DNA of 54,159 bases. It comes from Candidatus Omnitrophota bacterium. Its GTDB lineage: Bacteria; Omnitrophota; Gorgyraeia; Gygaellales; Profunditerraquicolaceae. Numbering within the stretch: position 1 is the first letter of the stretch; the number at the start of each line of letters is the position of its first letter. Location of the stretch: positions 1 to 54,159 of the forward strand of contig JAQUQW010000006.1 of assembly GCA_028716245.1 (NCBI GenBank). The letters are read 5' to 3'. The position numbers and the translations under genes are program-made. The notes below the pieces were generated by a model. It had not been told where the DNA came from, made no database searches, and saw only the letters and a program-made list of their open reading frames with translations. Below, in pieces: positions 30,001 to 51,000 of the stretch.

Positions 30001-33000
30001 TATAACTCACCTTGCTAAGCCTTCTGCCGAATTGTCTTTTCTCCGATTCCGGCTTAGTTTGTTTACCGCCATCGTAGATTTGGCCAACAGTGATGTATTT
30101 CGGTTGGATATCAAGATTGCCTCTTAAGAAGTATAAAACTTTTCTAAATATGTCTGCATGGCTAAATAAGAAAGTTACACTTTTGTCTAAAGCAGAGCTT
30201 TCATCTAGTTCTTTATAGGCATGCAAGATAAATTCATGGTGGGCCACAAAATAGAGATATTCGAGGGGAATAAAATTTGTTAAAAGAATTGCCTGAATAT
30301 GAACGGTATTACTTAGGGGATTATACCACATGGACGGCTTACCTATTTTCACAGGCTCAACAATAACATTTATCTTAAGAGGCGGGCCATTAATATAATG
30401 GGAGACAAAACCAAAGATTTGCTGAAGCCTCTCATAATAAACCCCTTGAATAAAAACATCAGTGCGTTTTAAGTTTAAATTATTGTCGCTATGAATAATT
30501 ATCCTGCCTAAATTAACTTGCTTAAAAGTATTGAGCTCAGGGGGAATAGAAAGTACGCAATCAGGAGCCATAAAATTAGCGGCTTCGCCTAATTCTTTTA
30601 ATTCAGCATCAAAAAGTTTCATCTTTTTTTGTATAGTTTCTTTGGTTAGTTGCATGCCTATATCTGGGCTGGACTGCATCTTAGCGATATTTGCGAAAGT
30701 CTTATCATATTCGAAAAGCAGGCATACTGGCGGACAAATAGTGGATAATCCTTTATTATTGATCATTTCAATTACATCTTTACGCTTTTGGCTATTCCAT
30801 ATTTCAGCTAAAGTTTGTTCTTTTAAATTTCCGTAGGCAACACGTTTGTCTATGGCTAATTCTACGCAATGGTAAACCGTACCATCTGAACCGATGAAAC
30901 TTACCCAAGGACAAGCCAAACATTTACTAAATGACTTCTGCGCCTGGTATACTCCATCCATTCGTTCTTTCGGAATTAATACAGAAATCGGATTTTTTCC
31001 GCTTTCTAAATAAGGTTTTACTTCTTTTTCTAAATTAATTAAAGCTTCTTGAACTAGGGACGCCGGGAACTGCTTACCTTTGTAGATGAAATCATAATAT
31101 GCCTGATAATACCTGTTTAGTTCCGGATTAGTGCGGACAAATTCCAATGAATCTATTGTCTCCTGTGTAATTTGACAGCCTCTTTCATATCTTACGGTGG
31201 GCCGGTAGGCAATAGAATCTATAGTCCCAAAGTCATCGTTTATCTCTTTCATAATCACGGCGATATTCAATAAATCTTTTATGTTCAGTGGAGTAATAAT
31301 CACTCCTATCCCAAAGCTCATCTTACTACCGGTTATTTTCTTGGCTTTAGCTAAATTTCTAATATTCTCTATTGCTTTAAAGAAAGCGTCTTCCGTTGTC
31401 CCGTGGAAATGTTTGTACGTCTCTTTGGTTCCGGCATTAAAACTTATCCGCAAGAAAGACAAGCCGATGCGTAGAATTCGCTCCGACTTTTCCGGTGAAA
31501 GAAGATACCCATCGGTAAAAAGCGCTACGCTCATTCCTTTACGCTTGGCGTATTCCATCCCTTCTATTGTGTGTGGGTTGAGTAACGGCTCTCCGCCGCC
31601 GGTAAAAACAACTGCCTTTACCCCAGATTCTGCCAATCTGTCTATATATAATTTCATATCTTCTAATTTCATGAAGAAATCGCTTGTTTTAGCTTCGCCT
31701 TTTGCTATCGCCGCTCTTATCTCTTCCTTAGAAACGCCATAGCTGCATGTCGGACAATGATATTGGCATATATGTGTAGGAGCTATTTGCGCGGTCACTG
31801 GTAAAATATCATAAAATTTACCCTCGATTACCTGACTTACTCTTTCAGAATGGGCCAGCCATTTGATAATGGTCATAGCGCCATAACCGCGGATATTTAT
31901 AATAGAATTTTCTGCTTCCAAAGATAGTGCGGTATCTTTTTCTATCTTTCCGCCATCTTTCTTATTTGTTATGTCTTCCTTATCGAGCCTAATAAGTTTT
32001 TTGACTACGTCGCTGCCTATCGGCATTGTGACAGGATACTGTCGATTGCCTCCTTGATTTCTTGATTCCTCACAGCGCAAAATCTCAACCAAATCATTAA
32101 AACGCGCAACGGCCTGCTCTAAATCCATCTTTCTGCCGACGCATTCCACCGTTGCTGATTGAAAAGCAAGCGCGTCCTGTAAAGCCCAAAACAATTCTTT
32201 AAACTCACGGGCATTTTTTGATTGAGCCAATTCTGGATGAGAATCCCAATAATAATTAAAACATCCCCTCATAAATTGCATTAATGCCACTCCGGTTAGA
32301 GAGCATCCTGATATCTCTAACCCATGTTCATCACAAAACTTAAACGACCAATAAAATCGTTCGAAAACTCGGATTACCCCTGATTCTTTGAGATTAGTCG
32401 ATAAATACCTCCGGGAGGAACATCTATTGTTAATTTCTGCTAAAATTCCGGACAGACTTAAATCAGTAACTTCAATCCAGTAATTCACCATCTCCGAACC
32501 GGAATAACCGTCGGAGTCGGTTTCGCTGAATCTTTCCTGCCTCAATTGAAATATCGCAGGGTCAGGAAAACTTAACGCTAATCCCCCGTATTGAGCGCTG
32601 TCCGGGTCAAGACAGCTGACGCCGTTTAAATAAGCCGCCAGGAGCCGGGGGTCGCCGGCCTCCCGTTCGGTTAAGAGTTCTTTCTCCTTAAAATCGCGCA
32701 CCAGCCGGGCCATAAAATGCAACAGGTAAGCTCTGGCGAAATTCGCTGTGCCGGGACCGTCAACATATTCGCCTAAATCGGCGAAATCACCGTTGAAACA
32801 ATAGTTGTTTAAAATCATATTATATGCCGGTTCAGCACTCATCAGGCTGCCGACCCCCCGGCCGTAAATGTTCCTAACTACGGCGCCGTAATTATCGGTA
32901 TCGGTAGTTTCATCAATTCTCTTATTGCCGTTGGGAAAAAGGTAAAGCTCGCTCTTATTCATTCCGGCAAGGTTTAGCCCCACGCGGTAAAGAAAATCTT

Positions 33001-36000
33001 TCAGCATATTAAATACCCGGCCTTCAGCTTTCCACCTGCCCAAGTGGCTGTCTTGCCCGAATTGCTCGTATTCGTATAAGAGCTCGCGCAAACGCAAAGC
33101 GCGGCTGTCGGACTTAGCTAAACGCAAGGTTACCCCATAACTGCGGCCATCTCCAGACAAACTGTCCTTAAACCACCAGTGAAATAACGGATGGTTCGGC
33201 AAAGTTACGCCGTTTAGACATACCCGTGGCTCATTACTGCCGTCGCGCTGAGACTGGTCGGCTTCTTCCATACCGGGCGGAGAATTAAAATGCGGTTGGT
33301 AGTTAGTCCCGCTTAAGGAACCGGACAGGCTTAAAAAGTAATTTATGTCTTCACTAATAACCTTGTCCTCTTCATCAAGCAAGCGGAATTTAATCCGAGA
33401 ATTAGGACGGGAGGACTGATTTTCCATAATTTGTACCGGTCGGCCTTTTCTGTCAAAAACGTTATGGATAGACTTAATGACTGGTGTACCTAACCCTTTT
33501 ACTTCCAGCCTGGCTGGCTGGAAAACAAGTTTTTCTCCGGTGAGAACCGGAATAAATAAATCTGCCGGGCAGCGCAAAGGCTCCTCGCCTCTTTGTCTTG
33601 AAACTATCTGCACCCAGCCAAAAGCACCGGGAAACATAGATAAGCGGCCGACTACCTCGCGCAGTGAAGAAAATTCAAGTTCATAAGGTTCTCCGTCAGC
33701 TTTTCTTAACTTGACTAAGCCGTAACGCTGTTTAACTTCCTCATCACTTAGACGCCGGATATTCAGGTATATTTTATCATCGGCTTCTTCGGCTCGGATA
33801 ACCAAGTAAAAATCGCCGATTACAGGGACAACCACTCCTTCTTTTTGAGTAGCCAATAACGGACCGGTTTTAGCATAAGATTTACGCCATAAATCTTCTG
33901 CCTTGGCTTGTTCAATCCGGTAAAAGAAAACTCTATGCCTACGCAAAAGTTTATTTCCACTAATCGCGGCAGTAGGTTCTCCGGCAGAACCGGCTGTGTT
34001 TAATTCTTTGATAAGCGCGCTCATATCCGCTGATATTGAAGGTATACCTGAATATTCGCCTCCGCGGCTGATTGCTGACTTAATTTTCTCTAACCAGTAA
34101 CTATCTCCCATTATTTCTATTATAGCCCTGGCTGCAGAGGAGCGAACATAATCATCGCTCTCTTTTAAATCTAAAATATATCTTTCTATTTTAAGCTCAA
34201 TAGTTAAAGCTCCGAGTTTTTCTAAAGCCCTGGCTGCGCATGAGCGGAGGACATAATAATCGCTATCTTTTAATATTTCGATTAAGACGGAGATAGCCGC
34301 TTTAGCGGCTGGGCCGATTTCACCTAAGGCCTGGGCTGCGGATGAGCTGACATCTGGATCATATAAAGCATTAATCAAAGGCTCAACTGCCTGTTTATCG
34401 CCAAGTTTACCTAAAGCACTGGCTGCGAAGGAGCGGAAATTGCTCCCGATTAAAGCCGTTTTGCTGTCTTCTAATGCCTCGATTAAGGCAGGAATAGCCG
34501 CTTTAGCGGCTGGGCCGATTTCACCTAAGACCTCGGCTGCCAATGAGCGGACATGATTATCGCTATCTTTTAAATCTAAAATATATCTTTCTATTTTAAG
34601 CTCAGTAGTTAAAACTCCAAGTTTTTCTAAAGCACTGGCTGCGGATGAGCGAACATATGAATTTAGATCATATAAAGCATTAATTAAAGGCTCAACTGCT
34701 CGTTTATCACCCAGTTCACCTAAGGCACCACTGGCTACGGAGCGGACAGTCTCATCTGAACTTACTAAGACTCTAATATAACCATTCACCAGTTGTTCTT
34801 GGGTAACACCTAATTTCTTTAAGTCTTCTGGGTATAATGTACCCAACCAAATATACCAACTCATTGGAGACACATAACGCCAAATCGTAAAGAATAACCC
34901 AACCCCTAACACTAATACCATAATAACGCTGATGATTGGATTAGCAGAAACAAAAGAAATTAACAGATTCAATGCAGATTCAAAACTTGGAGAATATACG
35001 GCAGTGGAAAGGAAGGCGGGGAAAACGGAAAGGCTGAATAGTTTTAATTGAAAATCTGTATTTACTTTTCCACCATCTTTTAATACCACGCTCTGCCTCA
35101 CAATATTAGTAAGCAATGTCCTCCTTAAGAATAAAATTTCCTTGACATATATTTGAACCTGGTCTTGATTACGCTTATTAGCATCGAGCAAAGCCTGCTT
35201 CTCCAATTCCACTTTTTCTTCCAATAAAAGTAAAATTTCCTTGTTATCTATTTGAACCTGGTCTTGATTACGCTTATTAGCATCGAGCAAAGCCTGCTTC
35301 TCCAATTCCACTTTTTCTTCCAATAATAGCGCATCTAATAATCTTTTCCATAAAATCGAGGCTATTTCTTTTTCCTTATCTTTAAAAAGCAACGTTTTTG
35401 CTTTTTGCTCAAACATATAATCGTTCAATGTTTTTTGCGATGAGACCGGTTGCCTTCCCCGGAATTCATTAACGGCTCTCTGTATATAATTTTCCTTGGT
35501 TTCCTGAGCAGCTTCAGCCCATAAAATATCGTTGCCTTTTGCCGAGAATTCATCAATTAATTGCGCAATCTCATGGTTCTCAAGCGTCTCTTCTGTTGTC
35601 CAACTGTAGGATACCGCAGTCATAGTTGATTTTTCGACTAATTTATTTTTAAGTTTATTGAATAATAATTCCTTTGCTTTCGCTTCATTTCTATCATTGA
35701 TATCCAAGAGGGCATCCTTAAGGGCGCCAATAACTTCAACCCTCCAGATGTTATCCACCATAGCGGTTATCGAATTTGCTTGATCCAAAACAGACCGAAC
35801 CTTAGTGTCCATACCTTTCTGTGTTAATAATTCTTGCGCTTTACCCTCAAGATTGCCATCCACTATTTTTTGCTGAGCCTCTTTATTCTTTTGCACCATT
35901 TTATCAAATAATGTTTTCTTAGCCTCTAATTCCTTTTCCTTGTTGCCGTTAGTGTCTAAGAGCGCTTGCTTAAAATTTTCTCCCAAAATATCCGTATTCC

Positions 36001-39000
36001 AAATTCTATCATTAATTACTAAGTCAGGACCTTTCTGTTCTATTGCTCTACGAAGATTGGTAATGTTATTTTCATCTGCCAATAGTTCTTTTATCTTATC
36101 CTCAATCTGCTCATCTACAATTTTCTGCTGCGCCTGCTTATTTATCTGGCTCATTTTATCGAACAACAATTTCTTCACATTAGTTACATTGCCATCATTT
36201 ACTTCTAAAAGCGCATTACGTAAACCTGCTTCTATCGAATCCCAAAGAGTAATGGTTATAACCAAACCAAAATTACCGTTTTGAGCCCTTGCCTGCCGTA
36301 AATTACTAAGCGTACTGGCATCATCTAATATTTTTTTTGCTTCTCGGCTAATCTTTTCATTAATAGTACGGTTTTCATATTCATTGTTAAGCATGCCCCA
36401 GAAATTTTCTTTGGCCTTATCTATATCATTGTTATTCCAGTTTAAAAGGAATTGTTTTAATTGTCCGGGTAAATCATCCCAAATAACATTCATATTATTT
36501 AAAATTATAGAACTTCTGGCTTCTTTATAACTTAGCTCTTTAGCAAGTTTTAACATTTCTTCTCCCATAAAGAAAGATAAAGGTAGTTGTTCCCTCTTCT
36601 TGATTTCTCTCTTTACTTTTTCTAAATAATCTTGCTGATTTTTATTTTCCAAATCTTGCCAAAGAGCTTCTGCGCCTTGAGTTTCTAAAGCATCGAGCTT
36701 AAGCCTGATTTGATATATTTTATTGAAATACTGACCAGCCTTACCTTTAATTACTTCTCCAAGATAAACGTAAGTCCCCTTCTTAAAACGATTAATGAGC
36801 CAAACAATTGGCCTTAATGTAACTAAAGCTATGATAATGCCTACAACAAGAACTGTAGCTAAAATGAAGATGCCGAAGACACCCATCTCTATTTTCTGTA
36901 TTAGGTTATAATTACTTTTCTTTGACGTCACATTGAACCGCCAAATCTTACAATCTGCCTTAAAGAATCCCCACCATAGCCTGGTCCCCACACTTAAAGG
37001 TGTTGACCCGGGATTTGCCAGGAATGGAACAGCAAAAGCAGAAACTACCATTAATACATAACTCCATGACCAGATTAACGTCAGATTCCAATAAAAAGAT
37101 ATGGCAATAATTGAAATAACCGTGAGAGTTAACCCATAACGAATATGGCTTCTCCTGTAATCATTATATAATGACGCGTTTTCTTCTTGTAATCGCCCTT
37201 TCGAATCAAATGGCTTAACCGCGAAGATAGGAATATGATGCAACATAAAGCCTCTTCCTGTTCCCACATACATCGCAATTCCATCCATTGCTTTTCGCAC
37301 TCCAAAAGCATAAGTAAATACCTGGGCCATAAAATAAGGCACCATACCTTCGATAAGCATCTTTGAGAAACTGCCTGTAGCTCTCACAAACCCTTTCTTC
37401 AGCATCATTTGAAAATAGCCTCCCAATGCGATAGCTTGCATAAGGAGTATCGCCAGCAGCCCGAAGATTATTTCTGAAGGAAATGAAGCAAATCCGCTTA
37501 TACCCAATAACAATAAAAGAATAATATACGAAGTAACACCCAATCTAACTATGGGTTTTCTCAAAAAGAACCCTATGGCACCGATGAAATGCGACATTAC
37601 CTGATCAAGCGAGAAATTAGAAGAAGTATTCAGTAAATACAAGTATCGGGATCTACCCTGTTCGCCGCCGCCCATGCCTAATTTTTCAAAAAATCCCGCG
37701 GTTTTCGAGAAAGCAACTTCTCTTGCTTTGCCTGCAAGAATAAATTCAAAAAAATCCACCGTATATCCTTTTAATACCAATAAGTATCCTCCGAAGATAT
37801 CTTCATTAACATAAGAAGGCAAAGATGAACCTCGCTGGCGAACATAAGTCTCATCCCAAATATCAGGATGTCCATAATGGAACCTGACTTTTAGTAGAGT
37901 AAGAACTCTGTTCGTCAAAGAGTTAAATGTTCCATCTGCAAGAGCGTTAAATTTAGCTATTGTGTTAAATGTTTCAGTAACTATATGTTCCGGGAAACCT
38001 ATAAGCTTAACTTGATCATCATATTTGAACTTTTCCATTAAATTAGGCATAAAAAACCATTGTTCGAGGTAGAAATCCTGATTAACATCAATGCTCATCA
38101 TCTTTTCTCCCCGAACATATCTTATGCCATTAGTTTGCCCTTCGGGTTTACCTTCGGCCAATAATTCCTTACCCGGCAAAGTGATACTCTGCGAGTGAAC
38201 AATCGTTCCAGAACTACATTTCGCTAGGCCGCTAGTAGCATTAAAGAAATAAGCTATTTGTAAAATCTCAGGATATTCTTTCAACAGCCAATCCAAATCC
38301 TTAAATTTTTGTATTTCATCTGGCTTTGTTGAAACAGAGAAATTCCGGTATTGGTCAAAAGCTATTACATACTGAAATTTCTCAAGTAATTTCTTATTTA
38401 TCTGCTCCTCAGTATTGCGAACAAAGAATCCCGGGTCCTCAATCCCCAATTTCCACTTTAGGATATCCCGATAATACATCATTCCCCTAATCGTTCTTGA
38501 TAAAGGCTGGAATGAATACGATGCCCAAAGCCTTACCTCCATTATCAAATCATCATTACCTATAACAAGTGGGGTACCATAAACCAGATTCTTCATCTTG
38601 TCAATTTCCTCTGGAGGATATTTCTTAGTGCTTTCTAAATATTCAATAAGGTTTTTCCATTCATCCGGGAAAAGTTTAATTAAATACGTCAGCGCCGTTA
38701 AACCGGTATTAAGAACTTTATTCAAATCCTTAAACTCATAAATGACTTCTTCGTTACCAACCGGAGTCATGATGCTGAGTGAAAAAAGCTGTTCCCATGT
38801 TGGAGCGATATCCATATCCATATGCAGCTGATCCGCAAACCAGATGATTCTTTCTTCTGCTGATTTGTTAAGCGGTTTTTTGCCCAAATTAGGTTCTGCG
38901 TTTATTTTACCTTTAAGATAGTCAGACGAGTTCTCTTCTATTTTGAACTCATATGCTTCAAGTTCTTGTTTGGACAACCTCTTTTGTAGATACAAAGCTG

Positions 39001-42000
39001 TTACAATCAAATTCCAGGCTTTTGCCCAAGCCATTCTTTTCTGCTCATCACTAAGACTTAAACTGGAAGGAATCATTTTATCCTTAAACAGCTTCTCAAT
39101 TTGTTTTTCATTAAATTTTTTATTTACTTGTTTCCAGGACTTTATAGTGCCAATACCGATGTATTTACCTTTCACATAACCTACAATTGCTTCTGATAAA
39201 TAAAAGAAGGTAAAAGTATCCAGGAAAAAGAAAATAATAAACGGCAACCAAAGGGCAACTATTACCAATGGGATCATGTTAAACCCTAAAATCAATAGCG
39301 CCCCTCCCCATAACTCATTTGTTACTATGCCTAAATTAAAGAATACAAAATAATTCCAAAGTACTTTTGGAATAAACACGCCTAAAATCCAAAATGCCCA
39401 TCTTGATACTTTTGACCAGATAGTAACTTTGGGAGATTTATATCCTTCGTCCGGCCTCACGGATGCTGAATGATTCTTTACTTCTAGCCATCTATCCAAT
39501 AATCTTTTACAGATTTGTAAACCTACTGCCAAGAGAATCAATCCGGCTGAATAATAAACCACCAAACCCGTGATTCCTATTCCCACTGACAGAAGCGCAA
39601 ATCCTGAAGCAATATAAAGCATAGCTAAAAGAATAGATAAGGGTTTGATGAAGTTCCTAAATGTACGCAGCCATCCCCTTATGCTAGAATTGATAACTAA
39701 ATATAACTTTCTGCCAAATATCTTAGTATCGATTATTATGCCCCCGCTTTTCTCCAGATATGTTTTCCAAATTACCGCACCCTCATCACCTTTATCCCAT
39801 TCTTGACGAATAAACTTCCAATACTCTTTAAATTCCTCAGATTTTAGGGTTTCCTGTTGTATTTTCTCTTTATTCGTAACCCCGTATTTTTCAATCAATC
39901 CATCACTTCCATTGATCTTATTAAACAATTTCTCTACTAAAGGTTTTAATCCAGCGATGAATTTGTCGTAATCGCCATTTTTAACCTTACTCCGATAGCT
40001 ATTTACGAAATTCTTGTTCCTGAATAAATCATCCATATCATCGTAGGTGATAAAATACTCTGGCGGCACCGAACCCGAAACATCGCGAAATTTTCCGGGA
40101 ACAGCTCCTTTAAACTGGCCAATTTGTAATTCGAGTATTTTATGCCACCGAGTAATTTCCTCTCTTATAAATAAAGCAACGACTGCTTTGGGTATTCTTT
40201 TTGCTTCCCGGAATAAATAGCTATGGAAAGCAGGAGTATAATAAGCAAAATTAGCAGCAGATCTATTGATTAATTGCCATAAATACAGATCTTCCAAATT
40301 CAATTCTCCGACTAAACCTTCCCCTTTTACCGTCTTTAACCACACTCTATACTCTTCAAAGTGCTCATCAATAACAGTTTGCATTTTCCGCTTGTTAACT
40401 GCCAGCCGTATCTCATCATTTAAATATCCTTTAGCCTCATCGACAACCCCTTGTTCAAATCCATAGTCTAGGGGATTATTTAACAAGTCATCAATTTCTT
40501 GTATCTCACTTTGGCGGTTTGTGTTTCTCCAAAGCAGGAAATTGGGTATCTTCCTCTTTTGCCTGCCTATAAAGCTAGCGATAATCCCTGTGATATAAGT
40601 TACGATTATTACCGCTAAGGGAACAATAATCCACTGTAATAAAGACCAAGAACGTAAATCCTGTACCCATTGTTCAAGTGTGCCAATTCTGTGTTTACCG
40701 TTGTCTTCGAGATTACCGTATACATCATATTTATATTCTTGCTCGTAAATTTTACTAGGAGCTGTCCCTTCCCTCTCATAAACCATCTGAATTGTTTTAT
40801 CTGAAAAATAATTTATCTGGCTCCAATTCTTCAGCCAAATTTTCTCTGTAGGGTCGAAACTAATTACCGGCCTTTCGTCGGAAGCTGAAACATTGAAATC
40901 AACGATTTCTGTGCCTTTAGTTATGGGTTGTGGTATAAAAGTATCTGACTTGGGGCGGTCATTTAAGTCTTGAATTAATTTCCCGGTGGGAATATAAATT
41001 TTATTCTTCAAAAGAATGGTTGAATCAGTATTATGAATATCATATATAAATACATGTTCATACGTTCCGTTCGTTAAATCTTTTACATTAACTTTTTCTA
41101 CTTTGTTCGTTGTTAGATTATACCAATCAATATAAGAAATCTTTTCTTTGTATAACACGCTCTGGATATCGTATCCCCCAAAGATCCCATCTTTTTCTTT
41201 AAATTCGACGCTTCCCGGCAACACGCCAAACGGCGCGGAGGTTTTATTTTGCTCAAATAGCCACAATCTATTTACAACGGTTTTGTTAGTGCTTTTAGAG
41301 GCAGGACTTACAGCTATAAGTTCTTTTCCTAAAAAGTCATTGGTAAAAGAATAGCTCTGGCTTGTAATCTTAGGATTATCCGAATATTTTGCATCGTCTT
41401 GTTTGGCTGAAATCTCACCCTCGAGGTTTAATTCAGTGTACTGAGTTTCGATTAGAGAAGCTGACTCATTAAAATTCTTGCCGAATTGCTTTGTATATGA
41501 ATTTAAATCCGAAATGAGCCCGCTGCCTGTATAGCCTAAATATTCCTTTTCAGCACCAGAATCAACTATCGCCTTGTATTCTTTTGTAATACGGTTTCCT
41601 TTTTCATCATATGGATGCCAATAGAATCCAACTACCCCCTTACCTTGCTTATCAACTACTAATGTCTTATCAAAGAATGGCCCATAGGCATCAACTCGCC
41701 ATCCGAGATTAATATTAATCGTAGGGCTGCCTATAGTATCTACGACTGTCGCGTCTTTTAAAGGATGCCCGGGAGAAGTATAGCGGTCTTCTATAGCCCC
41801 TGAAGCATATTCTCTCTGGTTTTTTGATAATGCAATACCGTGTTTTAACAATAAATCTAATTCCTGTTGCTCCGGTTGAGTTAAATTTATATTAGAGAAA
41901 CTAAGATTATAATGCGAGAGGTTCTCTACGGAATTTTGTTCGCCTTCGTAAGAACCTTTATAATATGGTACTTGCTCTCCATCGCGGATATGGTAGGCGC

Positions 42001-45000
42001 TTACATTCTGAGGAGTATCTTTTAGATTGCTCCATTCTCCATCAGCCCAAATCCGCTGTGTAGGAATCCAGGTTTGAGTTACATTGACCGTATTACCCAA
42101 TTTATCCACATAAGAATAAGGCTTATCTAACGGTTTAAAATACCCCTGCTCCTCGTAAGCCCAGCCGCCCCAGACCTGATAAGGATAATGCCAGCGATAC
42201 CAAACAATATCCGTACCGGGAATTGAATAACGTACGCGAAAATATCTGGTCTCTTCATCGGGGCCTAAACCGTATTTGGCATCTTTGGCATCAGCATTTT
42301 CCACTTCTAAAATAATATTGCCGCTGGCTTTATCGATAAAATAGCCATACAAAGGAATCCTCTCCAACCCGATAAATTGCGGAGCCACGAATATCGCGCC
42401 GTCGCGGTCAATAATAATGGTTCGCCCGATTTCATCTCCGGGAACATTATATTCAAAGAAAATTTCATTTCCGATTTTAGAGATCGTTTGAACGAGGCGC
42501 AAATCTTCCGCGGTTAAATTCTCCGGTGTCTTTTGTTTTATTTGGGCAATTATAGTTTTAATATCATCTTTCTGAGATTCGCTAAAATTATAGATATTAT
42601 TAAGGTCGACGAGTGCTTCTTGTGAATACATCGTTTTAAGTATCTCATATCTTGCCTTCGCGTCATTCCACTTAATGAGCATTGCTTCTTCGGGTTGATA
42701 GAAATTCTTATCCTGATATTTAGCGACATAATAAATATCTTTGAGGTCTAAAGAGGCGATCATTCTTGACCTGCCAAAAGCATCCACCTGGGGTTCGCTG
42801 TAAATATAGTTTAACGGCTGGCCTGCGCTGGTGCTAGCGGCAAACTTAGTAAGCCTAAACTCGCTAAGCGGGAAAGTTTTATTTTTACCGGTTTGAGGAT
42901 CATAAACGCTTAATTCTTTAAATTCGGAGGCCTCTCCCACCATACGCGTAACCGTTCCGATTGTGGGTTGAGATTCTGATTGAGCCAGTGGATTCTTAAA
43001 ATACTTAAATACCGCGGGGAAATTCGAAGGTACAGTCTGATTCGCTTGTGGTTGCGGATGTTCTTCGGGAACAGGAGGAGCACGGGCGGTAAGAGTTTCA
43101 TTTATTGCCGAAACAGGAACTTTGGTTTCATTCTGCCAAAGCCCGCGCATCTGAGACACAACTTCTTTTTCGGTTCCATTTATCGTAACCCAGCCAAAAA
43201 ACGCTTCGTTACCGAAGAAATCATAAGGAACATCAAAAGCAGCCCCTGAAGTAGCCTGGCTAGTAGCATTTCCTGCTTTCCAATACTCATCCTGCCAGGT
43301 CATAAAGGTAACGCCAAGAATATTCTTAGCCTTTAAAGAATTCCAGATATTCACATCTGCCGCGGCTTGTTCAGTTTGATTTTCTTTACCTTCCCGCATA
43401 TTATAAGAATCCGCGCCGGTTTCAGAAATATAAATTGATTTATTACCCGCGGCTTGCTTAACTTCATCGATTGTGTTGGCAAGGCTATCCCACTGATACG
43501 CGTTTAAACCGAAAACATCCACTGAAGGAACTTGAGCAATTACACTCTTTAGCGCGTCTTTAGCAGAAGGAGTGCCGTCATAACCGTAAGCAGTAGAAAC
43601 CGGATGGTTGGGATCTATCGCCTTTGTGGCATTGGCGGCTTTTTCCAAAGCCTCATACCAAACACTAATATTACCGTTAGACCATTCCGGATGATAATTG
43701 TTTTCATTGCCAAACTCCCACATCAAAACTGCCGGATGATTTTTATAGGTCTTAATATAGTTTAGATAAGTGCCAGTCTTTATATCCGGACCTGGATTAT
43801 AGCGGTCATCAAAATAAGGGAATCCTACGATTACCCGGATATTATTTTTAGCGGCTAAATCCAACACATCCGGCATCGGCGGATAATAGGTTCTTATTGT
43901 ATTTATCCCGGTTTCATTCATCTTCTGAAAATAGGTTTCATTTACTGAATTGAGATTAAAAACAAAATCGCGCTGCCCCTTACCTTGAGGAACCGTAGAA
44001 AAGGTAACCCCGCGGATTTTATAGCTGCTATTGCCGACACTGAGCTGATTATCTTTTACAGTTACAGGCGTAATCTCCGGGTAAGTTTTTACCTCCGCGG
44101 GGAAATATGACTTATCCAGCGTAAATTCAATCGCCTTTGGCGCGGAGTAAATTCCTTTTGGATAAACCATTTCGATATTAAGGTCGGTTAAAGTTAAACG
44201 CGGCTCACTATAAACGCCATCATAAACAACATAGACCGTTTTATTTAATTCACCGAGGTAAAGAGTTCTCTTATAAACGGTAAACTGTGACTGATTCTTA
44301 AAGCTATTGATAAATTTATTAAATTCATTCTCAAAGTCATCGCTTCTATTGGTAAACCTTACTCCCTTTTGTTCTAAAAATCCGCGTGAATCTTTAACGC
44401 CAACAGTGCCTATACGAACATCCTGCTTCTTAATATCTCCTGCCAAGGAATGAGTAGTTTTAATCACTTGCCCCTTATCATTTACTTCATTAAAGAATTT
44501 ACCTGTGCTTTGCTCCAACTCAATCAAATTGCCTCTGGCATCTAATTTCTGAAACTTAGTTTTTCCTTCGGCTAAATTTATTTCCAGCATATTCACTACT
44601 ATCCCGCCTTTATTGGCTTTAAGCGGGATGAAAATGCGGGAAAGCTTTCCGGTTAAAGAATCATAAGCGCTAGCGGGAATATTATCTTTATAAACTATTT
44701 TCTCTTCGGGAGTAAGCTGATAAAGATGTTCGGCCTGACTGTAAGCGTCTATAATTATCTGGTCATTTAAAACATCTACTTTCTTAATAATATTGATGTA
44801 GTCCTGATTCTCGACCTCATAAACATAAAGGACATTATTCTTGGTCTCATATACCGGTTCGCCATGCTGATCAACACCTATCTGCACGGATATCGTTATA
44901 CCTCTCTCTTTAGAAGTATCTACGGTATAATAGGGATGCTTCAATCCATTCATCCGGTCATAATAAGTCAATTCCTCAAGTGAAACATCCCAATTCGCCA

Positions 45001-48000
45001 GAAGCGTGGCCCCTTGATAGACCTTATAGAAAACCTTATTTATATCTTCCCATGTTTCTTTAACTACCACGCCTTCATTTATGCCGGTAACTCGGCTTAC
45101 CATCCCCTGCGTATCCTCTTCTCCTGAATAGTGGCTTTGAAGTTGCTGCGCTGCAGTGGGTGCCTTCCCAACGCTGGACTTTATCAATGTATTCGGCTGC
45201 TGCTCATAACTTGTGCCATTTTTAATGATTATATCTGCCCCCGTAGAAAAGACGGGATTACCGAAAGAATTCTTTTGTGAAGGAGTAAGAGAATTATAAG
45301 TTTCGGGGGTAAAATATCTGATTTTATCCTGCTGCGTCTGGTTATTTTTCCACCATATAGCCATTCCGCTCTCGCTGCTTTCAACCAGATTTACAAACTT
45401 CCAGGTATCTGTTTCATTAAGAGTAATATTCCATTTCGAGCCCGCAGCCTTTTCTTTTGCCGCTTCAAAAGGAGTCAATTCGTTAGACGAGATGTTAGGA
45501 ACTATTTCCGTAGTATTTTCTGCTATATCTTGCTGGTGCATTTCATTAGATATTACATCATTTCCTGCGTTCGAGTTTTGATCGATAGCGTTATAAGAAT
45601 CCAGGTTAACCGCATCATCTTGATGTACATCGGCTGGATGGGCAAGAACTGGGGTGACAAACCAAGCGGCAGAGACAGATAAAATAGTAAACATGGCAAA
45701 TTTCGCATTTAGGTTATTTTGATTATTTTTTTCTTTTCTCTTTCTCTTGTACTCATCATGCTCATGTCTTATATCCCATACCTCTTCTCTATATAAAATA
45801 TTTCTTATTTCTTTTTCAGATTTAATTAAAAGGCTCACGTAGAATTTGTCTGATACAGTGATTTCGGGCGGGATCTTATATTCTTCTTCCATAAACTTGA
45901 CTTTTGAAACCATCGTTTTAGGCAAAGATTCATATATCTGCTTGCGATATGCATTGATTAATTTCCTGATGTTTTCCGGGCGTTTTAAAACAAGTATCGA
46001 TACATCAGATAAACCGGTATCTTCTAATATCTGCCGAGCGGCCTTTTCTGTCTTAATCCGCAGTAAATCTTTGGTGAATTCCATCTTCACCTGTTCCGAA
46101 TCTGCGAATAATTTCCATTCGCCATTTTGCAGCCGAATGATAATTACCATAATCATAATTACGGCTGTAATCACAAAGAAACTCCAAACATCATTCATCG
46201 CCACCCCTTCTGCCGCCAGGGCTGGGGTGGCCGTAAGCAGCAGACCGAAGATAACTATGCCCGCGGTTTTCATCATGGGATAGAAAATAACAAAAATATT
46301 GCCATTGACAAATTTAATGGTATATGCTAATTTATTTTTGATGGAAGAAGATGTGTTTTGGACAGATTCACGCAGACAGTTAATTGCAAAAGCGTTAATA
46401 AATTTATTCCAGGCATTAGTAATTGCCTTATTTATTTCAGAAGCTTTTGCTAAAGCAACCGCTCTGTGGAAATTATTTTTTCTTTCTGCAATGCTTTCTT
46501 CTTTAATAGCGGCTATTTTTGTATGTCCAACAAAAGATCCTAAGGAGGATTGAAATGACTGCTTTAATAACTTTAACCATAATCTGCCTGGTAATCTTAA
46601 TTTGGTTTGGAATTGATCAATATCGCCACAAGCACGTTCACTAGACACCGGCCCCGCCCTAAGCAACCCGCCGTCCTTAATCATAATATCTCTATATATT
46701 GATCCGCCATCGCGCTTTAAGAAAGCATCTTCTCCCGCCTTAATTTCTTTCGATTCCATCTTCCCTGAATTATTCTCTTCGGGATTGCCAAATAATGACT
46801 TATAAAGATTAATTCGAGGCCCAAATACTCCTGAAAGCTTCCAGCTAATAAATATAATTATTATTACCGATGGAATTGTAAGTAATCCCCAATAAGGATC
46901 CGAGATATCATATGGTATAACTTTTAATATCGAACTCCAGAAGATCGTTGTTCCCACAGAAAAATCAGCGACGATAGGTCTTTCAAGAAACAAAAGCCCA
47001 AGGATATCCTTTAGCATATACACAAGGGTAAATATGAAACTGCCGATTCCGATCCCCGCAAGAAACATTCTTTTCATATTAAATTTTTTAATTACTAAAC
47101 GTATTAAATAAAAACTTATTGTTAAATCTAATATATTGGGCACAAAATTACTCAATAATTCACTAATCTCCCGCGGAAGATAGACCTGGTGTCTTTGGAT
47201 ACTATAATTCGGGACAGCTAAAGGCGCTGCAAGTCCGGAAGCAAACTGTTCAGGGGCCCCGGTTTCAACAAAAGGCAAAATCTTACCTATCAATCCATAC
47301 GGATCCATAGAAGGATTCAATATTAAACCATTAAATTTATGCGCATCATATGTTAACGGTTCAAATATGGCATAATGGAGAAGTTCATGTGGCAAATGCA
47401 TTATTGCAATCACTATGGGCAGAGCTGTTAAAGCCGATCCTGACAAAAGAATAATGACGCTAATTAAATCAGATACGCCTTCCTGTCTGCTGAACTTTCT
47501 GATAGAATCTCGAATTCCAGCAAAATTGAGGACGGTTCTATTTTTTCTTGCTCCCAATCTCCAATAAGAAATAATACCAATTAAAACAATGATCCCTGTA
47601 ATTCCTGCCATGATAGGAGACATAACAACTATCCCCGCCCCCCCCGCCGCCAGGGCCGGGGCAGCTAGAGCACCTTTTACCGTAGGCGCAGTGAATAATA
47701 AAAGTGAAGCAAGCGCGAGGATCCAAAGCCAGACTTTCGCGGGAACTTTCTTTATAAAATCTACTACCCTATTGCCGCCATCATTGGACTTGGTTTCTCC
47801 TCTTTCCTGCGCTAAAGGTTCTAAACGTTCTTTGAAGAATTGTGTCAATAAAACATACTTACCTTCCTCAACGGATTTTTCATCGGCAGCCTCCAATGCT
47901 TTAAGCAACTGCACTAAATCCTTCATTTTTCTATATCGTCCCACAATGCTCAAACCGTCTAACTTATATTGATTAATTGTAGTTTTAAGATTAAGCGGAT

Positions 48001-51000
48001 AATATCCTTTAGATATAAGAATTATATCTACCAGCTTACTCGCTGTGCGGCCGTTTCCATTATTATAAGGATGTATAATAATAAACTTATAAAAAGTTTC
48101 TACCAGAAGATTTTCTAATTTAGTATTGCCTTTTATCCACATCGTATTAAGCCAATCTATATATTCTTCCATACTGCGAGGAATATCTTTTGGATCAACG
48201 AGTTTTAAATTTTCTCTGGTACCTATAACCACCTTCTCTGTTCTTAAACCTAAGTAAGAAGGAGAATTTGGATTGCCTGTTTCATCTAGCTCTCTCCCGC
48301 GAGCAACGATAACTTCTTTGTGCAATTTGTTTATAATCTCTTGGCTGATTATTCTTGGGGCATCTTTACTTAGCAGGCCGCCGTCCAAAGCGCGGTTAAT
48401 CTTTTCAGCGGATCTTTCTTCCTTTAACCTTTGAAGTTCTTTTAATATCCTGCCTCTGCCGATTTTCTTAATAATCGCGCCCCTGATATCTTCCATTGAA
48501 ATCTGAAGCGGGAGCATTCGCGCATTTATCGCTTTCAGGTTAAATTCTATATCCACCGCCGCGGAAAGCAGGTTTTCTTCCGGCCCGCAAAGCATTAAAC
48601 GCGCGTCAACAATCTCTGCTCCCGCGTTTAATGCCGCCTTTAATGCGCTAAAACCTCCTGTTTCCGTATTTGTCGATGGCACGCGAGATTCAGCAGAAAA
48701 ACTATTTTTATCTAACCGATCTAACGTAAATTGCATGGGCTTAGCTATCTTGCCTTTTACATATAGAATACCTCTCCCTTTACGGCTCTTCAGGTTGTTA
48801 ATTAAACCAATAAATAATAAATTTGATATTCTGTGCCCTTGATAATCGGGAGCAACAAATAGGAATGATACTTCAAGCGCCAAAGGATTACCCCTGTCTT
48901 CATCCACATCGACAAAACCAACGGCCTGTCCTTGTTTATTGCATACAACAACAGAATTACCGCTTAGAGATATTCCTCGCTTGCGCATAAAATCAATTAC
49001 CTGAGGGTGATAGTTTAATTTACTGCCGATATCTTTAAATGCTTTTATCTCAACCTGTCTTGCCATCACGCGCAGCAGGGCTTTCTTATGGGCTTCACGA
49101 TAAGCGGGAACATCAGGATAGATATTTGCCAAAAGCGGACCGAGATGTCTATTTAATACAATGAATTTCTCTAAAGACAGGCTTTCATTTTTACCGCAAA
49201 AGATCTCTATTAACCCGGCATAGTAATCTTCGATTACGCCTTCTGCTTTGGTCATAGCATTAAGCCCTTTTATTTTTTCATTTTCAGTTTGGGCGTCAAA
49301 CACCTTCCAATGCCCTTCTAAAATCCTGCCTATAATTTCAGCGTTATTAACCTGTTTAACTATATCGGCTATATTTTTCCCGCTTAATTGCGGCCATTCG
49401 CCGGTATTAATTATCCGGGTAACGGCGGATTTGAGTTCAGTTGAGACATCTTTGGATTCGTAAAAATATTTCTTCATCACTGCTTTATATATATCTTTAT
49501 TGCCGGCGTTAATGCTAAAACTTTCCTTTATTATCCCATACGCTTTTTCTTTAATCCCCATCGCAGTTGCTATCAATATCAATTGTAGATAGAAACCAAA
49601 ATCTATTTTCTTGGCTTCTTTTATTGATAAAGGTTTTGCGATTATGCTTTTCAGGATATAAAGGTAAGTTTCTCTGATATTGGAGGTTGGGAGAGCGTAT
49701 TCGGAAACCTTCCCCGCCGGCGTAGCTACGACAAACTTCTTGCCCTCTATTATGAGGTTATTGAAAACCTCATCCCGAAGCTTAAGCTGTTCAGAAACCT
49801 CCTGTAATAACATCGAGTTACTTTCTTTACCCACAAAATATTTAAATAACATATTCGATTCTCTCGATATCTCTGTAGTAACTTCTGGGGGATAAATCTC
49901 TTTGCGCCTATTAGCTTCCGCGATTACTTTTTCATATAAAATATATTGTTTACGGATGGCGTTCCTGAATTCCCTTACCTTTTTTGCCCTTGCGAAATCT
50001 TTTAATGAATATTTCAATGTCATTACTGTGTCTTGAAATGTCCCAACGGCGGCTGCTGCGCCCTGCACATTTTCGGATTTTTTGAGATGCCCCAACTTTT
50101 CCTCCAGCCCCCGGATCTCTTCCGCGTTAATGATTACTCTTAATGAATCTATTCCTCGTGATATTATGTTAAAAGTTTCTTGGGGATAAGCCCTCCCCTC
50201 TTCTCCGGCTTCCTCAAGCGCTTCTTTGAATAAATCATATTTTTCAGAAAATCCTTTTTCAATATTTTCATATCTTCCGTCATTGAACCAGATTGACTCC
50301 CCGGTTAATTTCTTGGATGCTTGTATAAGCCTCTTTATCGGATAAAGCCTGTTTTCTTGATTCGCTTTATTTATTTCTGTTAATGCTGCATTGAAGTCAA
50401 ATTTATCTTCTAGCACTCCGCCGTCGGCGATAATCAGCTCACCTTTTGCTTCTAAATCAAAACGTACCCTAAACCTCTCTACTCCGCCAACTAGAGCTTT
50501 ATCTGCTTCTTTTAGCATTACCCTTACTTTTAAACTATCTGCTGCCTTCTCTTCAAATTTTTTATAGAACCGAACTGCTTTTTTATTGTCTTCTCTAACC
50601 CACAACAATGCCCATTTTTTCTTCTCAACATTTTTAATATGCCTTAAACCTGCTTCTAATAATTTAGTCCCGATCCCCCCATTTTTGAGTGAAACTGCTA
50701 TGTAAGGAATAAGAGAAACATTACTCAAGGCCTCTAAATCTACATCCTCTACAATTACATACCCTACATAGGCATTGTCTTTGATGGCAAACCATACTCT
50801 ACTCTGTTGCGCAAAACCTTTATCTGGCTGGCCGGTAATTAATTTCTTAATCAGTAAGTTATGATCTACGCCGTCTTCTTCGGGTAATCCTGCCAAAGCG
50901 TTGATCTGTCTAATGATTGCGACCACTTCCGCGCTATCCAGGCCTAGCTCTTTAGTCGTCTTAATAGCAATGTTACCGCCGTCAAGAGAAACTTCTCTTG

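Follow-up and report, generated by a model that had tools for sequence, protein, structure and literature searches.

A bacterial FKS-type (GT48) synthase joined to a predicted exported glucanase-like domain within a giant protein

Beta-1,3-glucan synthases of family GT48 are known mainly from fungi and plants. In this report, we describe a 3,863-residue unit inside a giant bacterial protein that joins a GT48 synthase of this fungal/plant type to an exported enzyme resembling beta-1,3-glucanases, which shows that a synthase family known mainly from eukaryotes is widespread and ancient in some uncultured bacteria. The window analysed here, the whole stretch of 54,159 nucleotides, is one stop-free reading frame on the minus strand (2-54157) of 18,052 codons, whereas the other five frames contain 584-1,929 stops each; it therefore represents a fragment, open at both ends, of a protein of more than 18,052 aa that is most similar to the giant proteins of Candidatus Omnitrophota. 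The unit corresponds to residues 2498-6360 (nt 35078-46666; all features described below lie on the minus strand). The first-pass annotation had reported the main FKS motifs in order, a signal-like helix, an exported region with a GH-A barrel and both catalytic glutamates, a TM helix and the absence of the tripeptide DGG, and this observation was confirmed, as every one of these elements is present where it had been placed. It had missed the fact that the whole window is a single ORF, as well as two TM helices and an accessory domain described below. Its interpretation of the unit as an undescribed bacterial machine that synthesises and remodels beta-1,3-glucan is borne out only in part.

We first examined whether the synthase is a true member of GT48, for which the lack of a GT48 profile match had been named in advance as a refuting result. 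Pfam PF02364 (Glucan_synthase) matched at aa ~5097-5717 with 272 bits (E=1.1e-80) against a cut-off of 37.2, and Saccharomyces cerevisiae Fks1 (7xe4/7yuy) matched at E=9e-41 with the motifs in order. The cytosolic catalytic domain (aa 4980-5538, nt 37544..39220) retains E5136 (Fks1 E851), K5337 (K1082), D5357/N5359 (DAN, the DxN motif) and E5452/D5453 (the ED motif), whereas two residues that contact UDP-Glc in Fks1, Y849 and N1085, are replaced by G5134 and G5340 (residue roles from PMC12715860). The domain is preceded by four TM helices (aa 4842-4979, nt 39221..39634), the last of which aligns with Fks1 residues ~659-700, and is followed by four or five TM helices (aa 5539-5781, nt 36815..37543), including the YVGTGRGF interface motif. 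Upstream of the first TM bundle lies a cytosolic all-alpha domain (aa 4529-4841, nt 39635..40573), not noted previously, whose core (aa ~4564-4718) is a remote homologue of the eukaryotic FKS1_dom1 accessory domain; local hhalign against 48 eukaryotic N-domains gave a probability of 94% and E=1.1e-7 over 150 columns, the AF2 pLDDT for this part is 80-94, and the domain co-occurs with GT48 throughout the prokaryote clade. The unit ends in a 579-aa region of unknown fold and function (nt 35078..36814), which had no Pfam, PDB or PADLOC match, although homologous stretches follow GT48 in the relatives P0125, P0127, P0130 and P0160/L018 (P and L denote relatives found by protein search and GTDB loci, respectively).

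The N-terminal part of the unit begins with a TM hairpin (aa 2623-2641 and 2656-2674, nt 46136..46291), also missed previously, with Kyte-Doolittle peaks of 1.9 and 2.6 and flanking charges fitting an in-out-in arrangement. This is followed by a textbook signal-peptide-like helix or signal anchor (aa 2820-2838, nt 45644..45700) with a basic n-region (KRKRKEK), an h-region and a VLA|HPAD c-region, with 6 K/R in the N-flank and 0 in the C-flank, giving N-in/C-out. The exported region comprises 1,671 aa (aa 2839-4509, nt 40631..45643); apart from the GH domain it matches no known family, although its last ~400 aa are conserved in the relatives P0121, P0122, P0129, P0137 and P0151. A return TM helix (aa 4510-4528, nt 40574..40630), with K/R counts of 1 in the N-flank and 4 in the C-flank, is oriented out to in. 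Thus, by the positive-inside rule and TM parity, the GH domain is placed outside the membrane and the GT domain inside, and the placement of both on the same side, which had been proposed beforehand as a result that would speak against the unit, was not what the prediction returned. This topology rests on hydropathy and charge only, and the TM count after the GT domain is ambiguous.

The GH domain (aa ~3380-3680, nt 43118..44020) is a clan GH-A (beta/alpha)8 barrel whose closest family by both sequence and fold is GH158, which comprises beta-1,3-glucanases. A PDB sequence search matched GH158(Pro) 9oro at 3.9e-12, or at 3.1e-18 with a profile, and the AF2 model (pLDDT 82, pTM 0.86) gave as best Foldseek hits the GH158 structure 9p26 at 4.5e-15 and BuGH158 6pal. 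GH157 and GH72, which also act on beta-1,3-glucan, matched more weakly. However, the sequence similarity to GH158 covers only about half of the barrel, the Foldseek TM-scores are ~0.6 and GH2 glucuronidases score almost as well, so beta-1,3 specificity is not established. The predicted acid/base Glu3485 (motif GNE, nt 43703..43705) and the predicted nucleophile Glu3579 (motif ISETG, nt 43421..43423) are invariant among 29 homologues (N115/E116 and E210 in our alignment A3) and lie 94 residues apart, against 86 in GH158(Pro). The GNE motif aligns to that of GH158(Pro), which we take to hold its acid/base Glu143 (PMC13195107), the numbering offset between the PDB sequence and the paper not having been checked. 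The domain shares 40-46% identity with ~400-aa secreted proteins.

The tripeptide DGG occurs 27 times in the giant protein against 4.3 expected (Poisson 2e-13), is its most over-represented tripeptide and brackets enzyme-sized cassettes, yet none occurs between aa 2495 and aa 6361; with 27 random sites, the chance of a gap this long is 0.04, and no DGG falls within a recognised domain (P=0.009). The upstream DGG (aa 2495-2497, nt 46667..46675), with a second DGG 12 aa earlier (aa 2483), is the proposed N-terminal boundary, and the downstream DGG (aa 6361-6363, nt 35069..35077) starts the next cassette (TM + HEAT repeats), sitting ~10 aa upstream of the start of the TM+HEAT blastp alignment, as does DGG 7208 of P0122. 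P0122 has no DGG across its homologous 5,776 aa (aa 228-6004), and its DGG-bounded cassettes are conserved but reordered as units. In contrast, DGG is not enriched in most relatives and no protease domain was found in the window. The relatives further support a single unit: P0123 (2,315 aa, on a 10.9-kb contig) and P0142, P0161 and P0165 (4.0-4.5 kaa, on 35-125-kb contigs) are discrete proteins with a signal peptide, the GH domain and GT48 in that order, and P0123, P0161 and P0165 also have a detected accessory-type domain before GT48. The fusion is recurrent but not universal, as the GH domain is present in 9 of 41 informative relatives, on either side of GT48.

The ORF carries radical SAM/SPASM, GNAT, Fic, HD, NUDIX and DUF218 domains, and PGM, SIS and NTase-like domains exist further along it. 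Relatives were found at 23 GTDB loci, mostly of Omnitrophota and nearly all in ORFs open across the whole 20 kb retrieved; the closest relatives are Omnitrophota MAGs and a single-cell genome, at 38-54% identity, and the nearest, P0121, equals locus L002, an Omnitrophota MAG. A phylogeny against the eukaryotic enzymes, which had been suggested as a check, separated the eukaryote-type clade with an NJ bootstrap of 87/100. We found no paper describing prokaryotic GT48 in the literature that we could search, and to that extent the system is undescribed, although the sequences themselves are in public databases, labelled 'hypothetical protein' or 'GT2'.

Our data suggest, with moderate confidence, that the block is one functional module of a giant, probably omnitrophotal, multi-enzyme protein: a membrane-embedded GT48 polysaccharide synthase whose own polypeptide carries an exported GH158-like glycanase. 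We regard as demonstrated the full FKS/callose-synthase cytosolic architecture (accessory domain, TM bundle, GT-A catalytic domain with ED and DxN motifs, second TM bundle), the GH-A barrel with both catalytic glutamates, the placement of the two domains by charge bias and TM parity, and the recurrence of this layout as discrete proteins in other bacteria. The following is inference: that the GT domain polymerises glucose from an NDP-glucose into a beta-1,3-glucan at the cytosolic face and extrudes it through its TM channel, as Fks1 and BcsA do; that the GH domain, tethered on the outer face, cuts, trims or transglycosylates the emerging chain, in parallel with BcsZ and BcsA, KORRIGAN and CesA, Gas1/GH72 and Fks1, and the GH17 domain of NdvB; and that the module is set apart from neighbouring cassettes at DGG sites, possibly by proteolysis, while the internal signal-like helix may also be cut by signal peptidase. 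No biochemical data exist for any prokaryotic GT48 and identity to characterised enzymes is only ~30%. Neither the identity of the product as beta-1,3-glucan, nor action of the GH domain on the synthase's own product, nor remodelling rather than hydrolysis, nor cleavage at DGG has been shown, and the same holds for the suggestion that the distant PGM, SIS and NTase cassettes feed this enzyme.

An alternative that is possible, although less likely, is that the two enzymes are independent, the GT48 module making a surface or storage glucan while the GH domain belongs to a predatory or scavenging toolkit that digests glucans of prey or of the environment, their presence in one polypeptide reflecting anchoring and not cooperation. 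Giant Omnitrophota proteins are rich in exported GH, GT and peptidase domains and are thought to degrade prey cell walls (bioRxiv 10.1101/2023.11.21.568195), the closest GH homologues are free secreted enzymes with T9SS tails, of the type found in glucan-degrading bacteria, the GH domain sits ~830 aa from the return helix, and most relatives lack it, so that coupling is not obligatory. However, the recurrence of the GH...TM...GT48 order in discrete 2.3-4.5-kaa proteins from divergent clades fits selection for linkage, the specificities of the nearest families, a beta-1,3 synthase and beta-1,3 glucanases, match each other, and synthase-hydrolase pairing is the rule in cellulose, curdlan-like and fungal glucan systems. 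It is more doubtful that the synthase makes something other than linear beta-1,3-glucan, for example from a different nucleotide sugar or with a different linkage, and that the GH domain is specific for that polymer. With Y849 and N1085 replaced by Gly the donor or the product could differ, the N1085 position varies across the prokaryote clade (G, N, C, H, A), this clade is deeply diverged from the eukaryotic enzymes, the same ORF carries a GDP-sugar-type pyrophosphorylase domain and a guanylate kinase, and GH2-type folds score close to GH158; yet every characterised GT48 is a UDP-Glc beta-1,3-glucan synthase, the catalytic motifs, K1082 and E851 are kept, and the top GH matches by sequence and structure are three different beta-1,3-glucan-active families.

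Eukaryotic contamination, a recent transfer of a callose/FKS gene or a non-functional relic is very unlikely. A word-index search returned almost only plant callose synthases at ~30% identity, and one GTDB hit, L023 (Verrucomicrobiaceae), is closest to eukaryote-type sequences. However, an exhaustive search found about 50 closer relatives, all large prokaryote-type proteins, the frame is intact for 54 kb without introns, typical bacterial domains flank the GT48 module within the same ORF, and the catalytic motifs are intact; together with the GTDB loci and the separate eukaryote-type bipartition, these results refute this reading in practice.

Among known systems, the 'archaeovorin'-type giant proteins of Omnitrophota (West-Roberts et al. 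2023, bioRxiv 10.1101/2023.11.21.568195) share the giant ORF with many TM helices, the repertoire of GT, GH, methyltransferase, radical SAM, NUDIX, HEAT and GNAT domains, and the Omnitrophota as nearest relatives; that paper lists GT5 and GT1 as the prevalent GT domains, does not mention GT48 or glucan synthase in its main text and states that the cleavage points are unknown, and the SecA-DEAD and C39 domains it describes are not within this window. The endo/processive beta-1,3-glucanases of GH158 (BuGH158, PDB 6PAL; GH158(Pro), PDB 9ORO/9P25) share the barrel and the Asn-Glu acid/base and nucleophile Glu at matching spacing, but identity is only ~20%, the sequence match covers only strands ~2-6, and the domain, whose activity was not assayed, belongs to a distinct cluster of ~400-aa secreted proteins, some also hit by the GH72 and GH2 Pfam models, and is here internal to a membrane-tethered giant protein. 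Compared with the eukaryotic synthases (fungal Fks1/Gsc2; plant callose synthases CalS/GSL), the bacterial enzyme has the same motif set (ED, DxN, GKPENQ-like, HYGHPD and TGRGF), the GT-A domain inserted between two TM bundles, a homologous upstream accessory domain and about 30% identity over ~620 residues; it differs in being part of a protein of more than 18,000 aa, in having 4-5 TM helices after the GT domain against 11 in Fks1, in the preceding exported region with a GH domain in the same chain, in the two Gly replacements, in the absence of an evident Rho1-type regulator and in falling outside the eukaryote-type clade. The comparison with bacterial cellulose synthase BcsA-BcsB and endoglucanase BcsZ rests on a processive synthase with a cellulose-synthase-like fold, a large periplasmic part anchored by one TM helix next to the synthase and a cognate periplasmic glycanase, but those are separate proteins, from GT2 and GH8, regulated by c-di-GMP/PilZ, whereas here everything lies in one polypeptide and comes from other families. 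Finally, the logic inferred here is that of the NdvB-type cyclic beta-glucan synthases (GH17 fused to a GT2 synthase), considered alongside curdlan synthase CrdS (GT2), namely a membrane beta-1,3-glucan synthase joined in one chain to a clan GH-A domain that acts on beta-1,3-glucan, although the synthase is GT48 and not GT2, the hydrolase is GH158-like and not GH17, and the GH domain is predicted to be on the opposite side of the membrane from the GT domain.

We first examined the reading frame in which the block lies, and a six-frame scan showed that one minus-strand frame (nt 2-54157) has no stop codon in 18,052 codons and is open at both ends, whereas the other five frames carry 584-1,929 stops each. 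A standard ORF listing contained no minus-strand ORF of 100 aa or more, only because ORFs that run off the ends of the window are not listed. The frame encodes about 20 unrelated enzyme domains and is therefore a fragment of a giant gene; Pfam scans of its translation identified GNAT, Fic, Glucan_synthase and HEAT repeats, radical SAM and SPASM, a class I methyltransferase, DUF218, DUF4922, a fucose-pyrophosphorylase-type nucleotidyltransferase, HD, guanylate kinase, NUDIX, phosphoglucomutase (PGM), OMP decarboxylase and SIS. The block under study corresponds to aa 2498-6360 of this fragment. The observation of the first-pass annotation was borne out, as every element that it had listed, namely the FKS motifs in order, a signal-like helix, a long exported region with a GH-A barrel and both catalytic glutamates, a transmembrane (TM) helix and the absence of DGG, was found. 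Hydropathy and flanking charge revealed a helix at aa 2820-2838, with a KRKRKEK n-region and a VLA|HP c-region in the shape of a classical signal peptide, followed by a hydrophilic stretch of 1,671 aa and then by a helix at aa 4510-4528 with the opposite charge bias, and DGG occurs at aa 2483, 2495 and 6361 and nowhere between. A TM hairpin inside the block, at aa 2623-2674, had been overlooked, and the cassette just upstream of the block (nt 46676-47782, minus strand, aa 2126-2494) is almost entirely TM helices (six predicted) and matches no known family. Searches of the remaining segments against Pfam, NCBIfam, PADLOC and PDB gave nothing above noise.

A score against the GT48 family model, which had been proposed in advance as a test on which the assignment could fail, was clearly significant: PF02364 matched aa ~5097-5717 at 272.4 bits against a cut-off of 37.2 (E=1.1e-80), covering 678 of 819 model positions, and structures of S. 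cerevisiae Fks1 and Gsc2 matched at E=1e-39 to 1e-41 (Fks1 chains at E=9e-41). When aligned with plant callose synthases and Fks1, the sequence keeps the family motifs in order, that is, N(L/K)xAxxRI..F, RLWASY..Q...RT.RGMMYY, GKPExQ, IDxNQD, HYGHPD, NEDIF, GK(A/G)RE, GEQ and TGRGF. In terms of the residue roles summarized for Fks1 (PMC12715860), the catalytic ED pair (Fks1 E1221/D1222) is E5452/D5453 in NEDIF and the DAN motif (D1102, N1104) is D5357-V-N5359 in IDVNQD, and both are invariant in 11 prokaryote-type sequences. Of the four UDP-Glc binding residues of Fks1, E851 and K1082 are conserved (E5136 and K5337), but Y849 and N1085 are both glycine (G5134, nt 38756-38758, and G5340, nt 38138-38140, minus strand), so that this comparison does not settle whether UDP-Glc is bound as in Fks1; the N1085 position varies across the bacterial clade, which hints at a different donor or binding mode, and synthesis of linear beta-1,3-glucan from UDP-glucose was not assayed. 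Topology had likewise been named beforehand as a point that could count against the reading, and charge bias gives TM9 in-to-out and TM10 out-to-in, after which four further helices return the chain to the cytoplasm for the GT domain and four or five helices follow it. The 313-aa cytosolic stretch between TM10 and TM11 travels with GT48 in the bacterial relatives. An AlphaFold2 model of aa 4101-4841 had a mean pLDDT of 60, and only this cytosolic all-helical domain was confident; Foldseek gave no significant hit, leaving the exported beta-rich part uncharacterized. Within the cytosolic stretch, aa 4564-4718 (nt 40004-40468, minus strand) is a remote homologue of the eukaryotic FKS1_dom1 accessory domain: a single-sequence hhalign comparison with one callose synthase was insignificant and Pfam PF14288 itself did not hit, but a profile-profile comparison with the N-terminal regions of 48 eukaryotic sequences gave 94% probability and E=1.1e-7 over 150 columns, including the YGFE/FGFQ and YDD..E.F motifs. 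The eukaryotic segments were picked using the YDD.NE.F motif, which biases that one motif but not the other ~140 columns. The module thus carries the complete cytosolic architecture of FKS and callose synthases, with the GT domain inserted between two TM bundles and an accessory domain upstream.

The only recognizable domain of the exported region (aa ~3380-3680) matched GH158(Pro) (9ORO) at 3.9e-12 and BuGH158 (6PAL) at 6.6e-8 by phmmer. Its database homologues are ~400-aa proteins at 40-46% identity, many of which have a T9SS sorting tail and carry GH2_C, and sometimes GH72, Pfam hits. In an alignment of 29 of them, the NE acid/base (N3484/E3485) and the nucleophile (E3579) are invariant, and an AlphaFold2 model (pLDDT 82, pTM 0.86) shows the alternating strand and helix elements of a (beta/alpha)8 barrel. 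The domain satisfies the clan GH-A criterion of such a barrel with the acid/base Glu after strand 4 and the nucleophile Glu after strand 7. A profile of this alignment hit GH158 best (3.1e-18), then GH2, GH157 and GH72, and the model found GH158 structures first by Foldseek (E=4.5e-15), then GH2 glucuronidases and the GH157 laminarinase. We conclude that this is a catalytically competent clan GH-A domain that is GH158-like; however, only about half of the barrel aligns by sequence, the other families follow closely and no CAZy or dbCAN model was applied, so the data do not decide whether it is closer to GH158 than to any other GH family. GH158 enzymes are retaining and strictly recognize beta-1,3 linkages (PMC13195107), properties for which the domain was not assayed here.

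A word-index search for the GT48 region, limited to 8,000 candidates, was swamped by plant sequences, but this was an artefact of that limit, and an exhaustive search reversed the picture: of 1,002 hits, roughly the best 50 are closer to the window than any plant protein, and these are 1-8 kaa long with GT48 deep inside. A word-index search with the exported C-terminal, TM and cytosolic region found nothing, for the same reason, and local phmmer comparisons with the sequences from the exhaustive search were used in its place. A scan of one genome per GTDB species, among which the genome of the window itself is not represented, found 23 loci, of which most are Candidatus Omnitrophota, including a single-cell genome, or MAGs labelled Planctomycetales, and three are Endomicrobia; in nearly all of them the GT48 match lies in a frame open across the whole 20 kb fetched. 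An exact search for the window in JGI metagenome contigs found nothing. The closest relative, P0121 (51% identity), is the ORF of an Omnitrophota MAG. In an NJ tree of the GT domain, a comparison with eukaryotic enzymes that had also been suggested beforehand, the eukaryote-type sequences (plants, Cyanophora, Chromosphaera and others) form one bipartition with 87/100 bootstrap support, and the window sits among the large prokaryote-type proteins; a recent transfer from a eukaryote is therefore excluded, although the direction of the ancient relationship is not resolved. Protein P0002 of locus L001 (4821-7403) is an 860-aa protein that joins the N-terminal half of a GT48 module (37% identity to the window) to a class I/II aminotransferase, on a contig that also carries an archaeal Hef-type helicase-nuclease and RNase HII, and is either a chimera or an archaeal relative. 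P0198 (NCBI MHA1676782.1), a GT48-type sequence from a Candidatus Njordarchaeales (Asgard) MAG annotated as 'glycosyltransferase family 2', clusters with Omnitrophota sequences such as P0217 and could reflect binning error or transfer, and a short 696-aa GT48 ORF in a Verrucomicrobiaceae MAG (locus L023, 9746-11833) is closest to eukaryote-type sequences rather than to the bacterial clade and may be contamination or a separate transfer. Where sources name the prokaryote-type proteins, they call them 'hypothetical protein' or 'glycosyltransferase family 2', and full-text searches found no paper linking GT48 or glucan synthase with Omnitrophota, Elusimicrobia or other prokaryotes; the giant-gene preprint (bioRxiv 10.1101/2023.11.21.568195) does not mention it in its main text, its supplementary domain tables not having been examined.

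Three lines of evidence bear on whether the block is one unit. DGG is the most over-represented tripeptide of the protein (27 sites against 4.3 expected, 6-fold, P=2e-13; the next best tripeptide has P=1e-5), none of the 27 sites falls in a recognized domain (P=0.009), and a 3,866-aa gap is unlikely by chance (P=0.04). Sites lie, for example, at nt 50975-50983 (aa 1059), 48377-48385 (aa 1925), 31949-31957 (aa 7401) and 29234-29242 (aa 8306), and the other DGG-to-DGG intervals have the sizes of single enzymes, that is, GNAT 186 aa, Fic 201, radical SAM-SPASM 628, methyltransferase 300, HD 293, guanylate kinase 257 and PGM 773. In the relative P0122 the same cassettes occur in a different order, each again preceded by DGG: the methyltransferase cassette is 62% identical, with DGG 6004 matching window DGG 8306, the TM+HEAT cassette has DGG 7208 matching 6361, and the stretch homologous to this block has no DGG for 5,776 aa. 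DGG is thus a candidate processing or linker site of a polyprotein, although no protease domain lies in the window. Other giant GT48-bearing proteins, P0130 (aa 1941-6506) and locus L004 (translated ORF aa 3874-6455), lack the DGG excess but show an SSP[VIA] excess (13 observed against fewer than 1 expected) at inter-domain positions, which suggests lineage-specific separators; in L004 the first SSP comes just after the GT48 helices. In contrast, an MQH enrichment in L019, the giant GT48-bearing ORF of an Endomicrobiaceae chromosome (OY762939.1), comes from near-identical 60-aa tandem repeats (…NKNYGDMQHYI…; translated ORF aa 14-434) and not from a separator. In addition, discrete proteins with a signal peptide, a GH-A domain, an accessory-type domain (detected in P0123, P0161 and P0165) and GT48 exist on contigs much longer than the gene, namely P0123 (2,315 aa), P0142 (4,461 aa), P0161 and P0165. 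An HMM of the GH family found the domain in 9 of 41 prokaryote-type GT48 proteins that have at least 1,200 aa of flank, usually N-terminal and sometimes C-terminal of GT48, indicating that the coupling is recurrent but not universal.

The annotation had interpreted the block as an undescribed bacterial machine that synthesizes and remodels beta-1,3-glucan, possibly supplied by PGI, PGM and NTase domains downstream, and our data support this only in part. What the sequence, profile and model comparisons establish is the GT48 synthase with its accessory domain, the clan GH-A domain with its catalytic residues and the recurrence of their linkage; the mechanism is inferred. In this view, the cytosolic GT domain would polymerize glucose from a nucleotide sugar and thread the chain through its own TM channel, as in Fks1 and BcsA, and the GH158-like domain, held on the outer face by TM9 and TM10, would cleave or transglycosylate the emerging beta-1,3-glucan. 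Cassettes for nucleotide and sugar-phosphate metabolism do sit in the same ORF (nt 2-22024, minus strand, aa 10712-18052), comprising a fucose-pyrophosphorylase-like NTase, a PRK-like kinase, guanylate kinase, NUDIX, PGM, OMP decarboxylase and SIS; together they could form a nucleotide-sugar supply line, and the PGM, SIS and nucleotidyltransferase cassettes could supply the donor, but nothing links them specifically to this module. Cleavage at DGG, and signal-peptidase cleavage after VLA, are hypotheses. Alternatively, the GH domain may serve the digestion of prey or environmental glucan, independent of the synthase, or, given the two Gly substitutions, the product may not be beta-1,3-glucan. 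Eukaryotic contamination, like a recent transfer, is excluded by the intact frame, the exhaustive search and the separate eukaryote-type bipartition.

A bolder and only tentative possibility is that GT48 is an old prokaryotic family rather than a eukaryotic invention, that it already had the accessory-domain plus GT architecture and lives mainly in giant polyproteins of Omnitrophota and Endomicrobia, and that eukaryotic FKS and callose synthases descend from it. The giant genes would then work as 'operons in one reading frame', whose cassettes, bounded here by DGG and in other lineages by SSP[VI], are shuffled as units and released by site-specific proteolysis, and the GH158-like/GT48 cassette would be a self-contained machine that synthesizes and trims beta-1,3-glucan. 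GT48 enzymes make fungal cell-wall glucan, the echinocandin target, and plant callose, their evolutionary origin is unclear, and all characterized members are eukaryotic. A bacterial clade of dozens of sequences that already has the accessory domain gives an outgroup for structure-function work on Fks1 and makes the question of where eukaryotic beta-1,3-glucan synthesis came from directly testable, and its discrete 2.3-4.5-kaa homologues offer possibly simpler, Rho1-independent enzymes for biochemistry and cryo-EM. The main value of the finding lies in opening the prokaryotic side of the GT48 family and in offering concrete module boundaries for giant bacterial genes, as the DGG-bounded cassettes give the first concrete candidate for the processing or module boundaries that the giant-gene literature reports as unknown.

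Both GT48 synthases and synthase-glycanase pairs are known, and it is the host and the format that are unexpected here. The giant protein is of the kind described for Candidatus Omnitrophota as 'Archaeovorin' proteins (bioRxiv 10.1101/2023.11.21.568195), in having an ORF of more than 10,000 aa, many TM helices and a GT, GH, methyltransferase, radical SAM, NUDIX and HEAT repertoire. Its nearest relatives are Omnitrophota MAGs and a single-cell genome at up to 54% identity, and no SecA or peptidase domain lies within the window, but the ORF continues beyond both ends, so that the further criteria of an Omnitrophota genome with SecA-DEAD and C39/S8 peptidase domains were neither satisfied nor contradicted. 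The module is not an NdvB-type GH17-GT2 fusion, because its GT domain is PF02364 (GT48) and no GT2 or GH17 model hit, and the resemblance is one of logic only. The role proposed for the GH158-like domain is the one that BcsZ, KORRIGAN, Gas1/GH72 and the GH17 domain of NdvB play for their synthases, and its covalent link to GT48 extends the 'synthase plus cognate glycanase' rule of polysaccharide secretion to a new pair of families.
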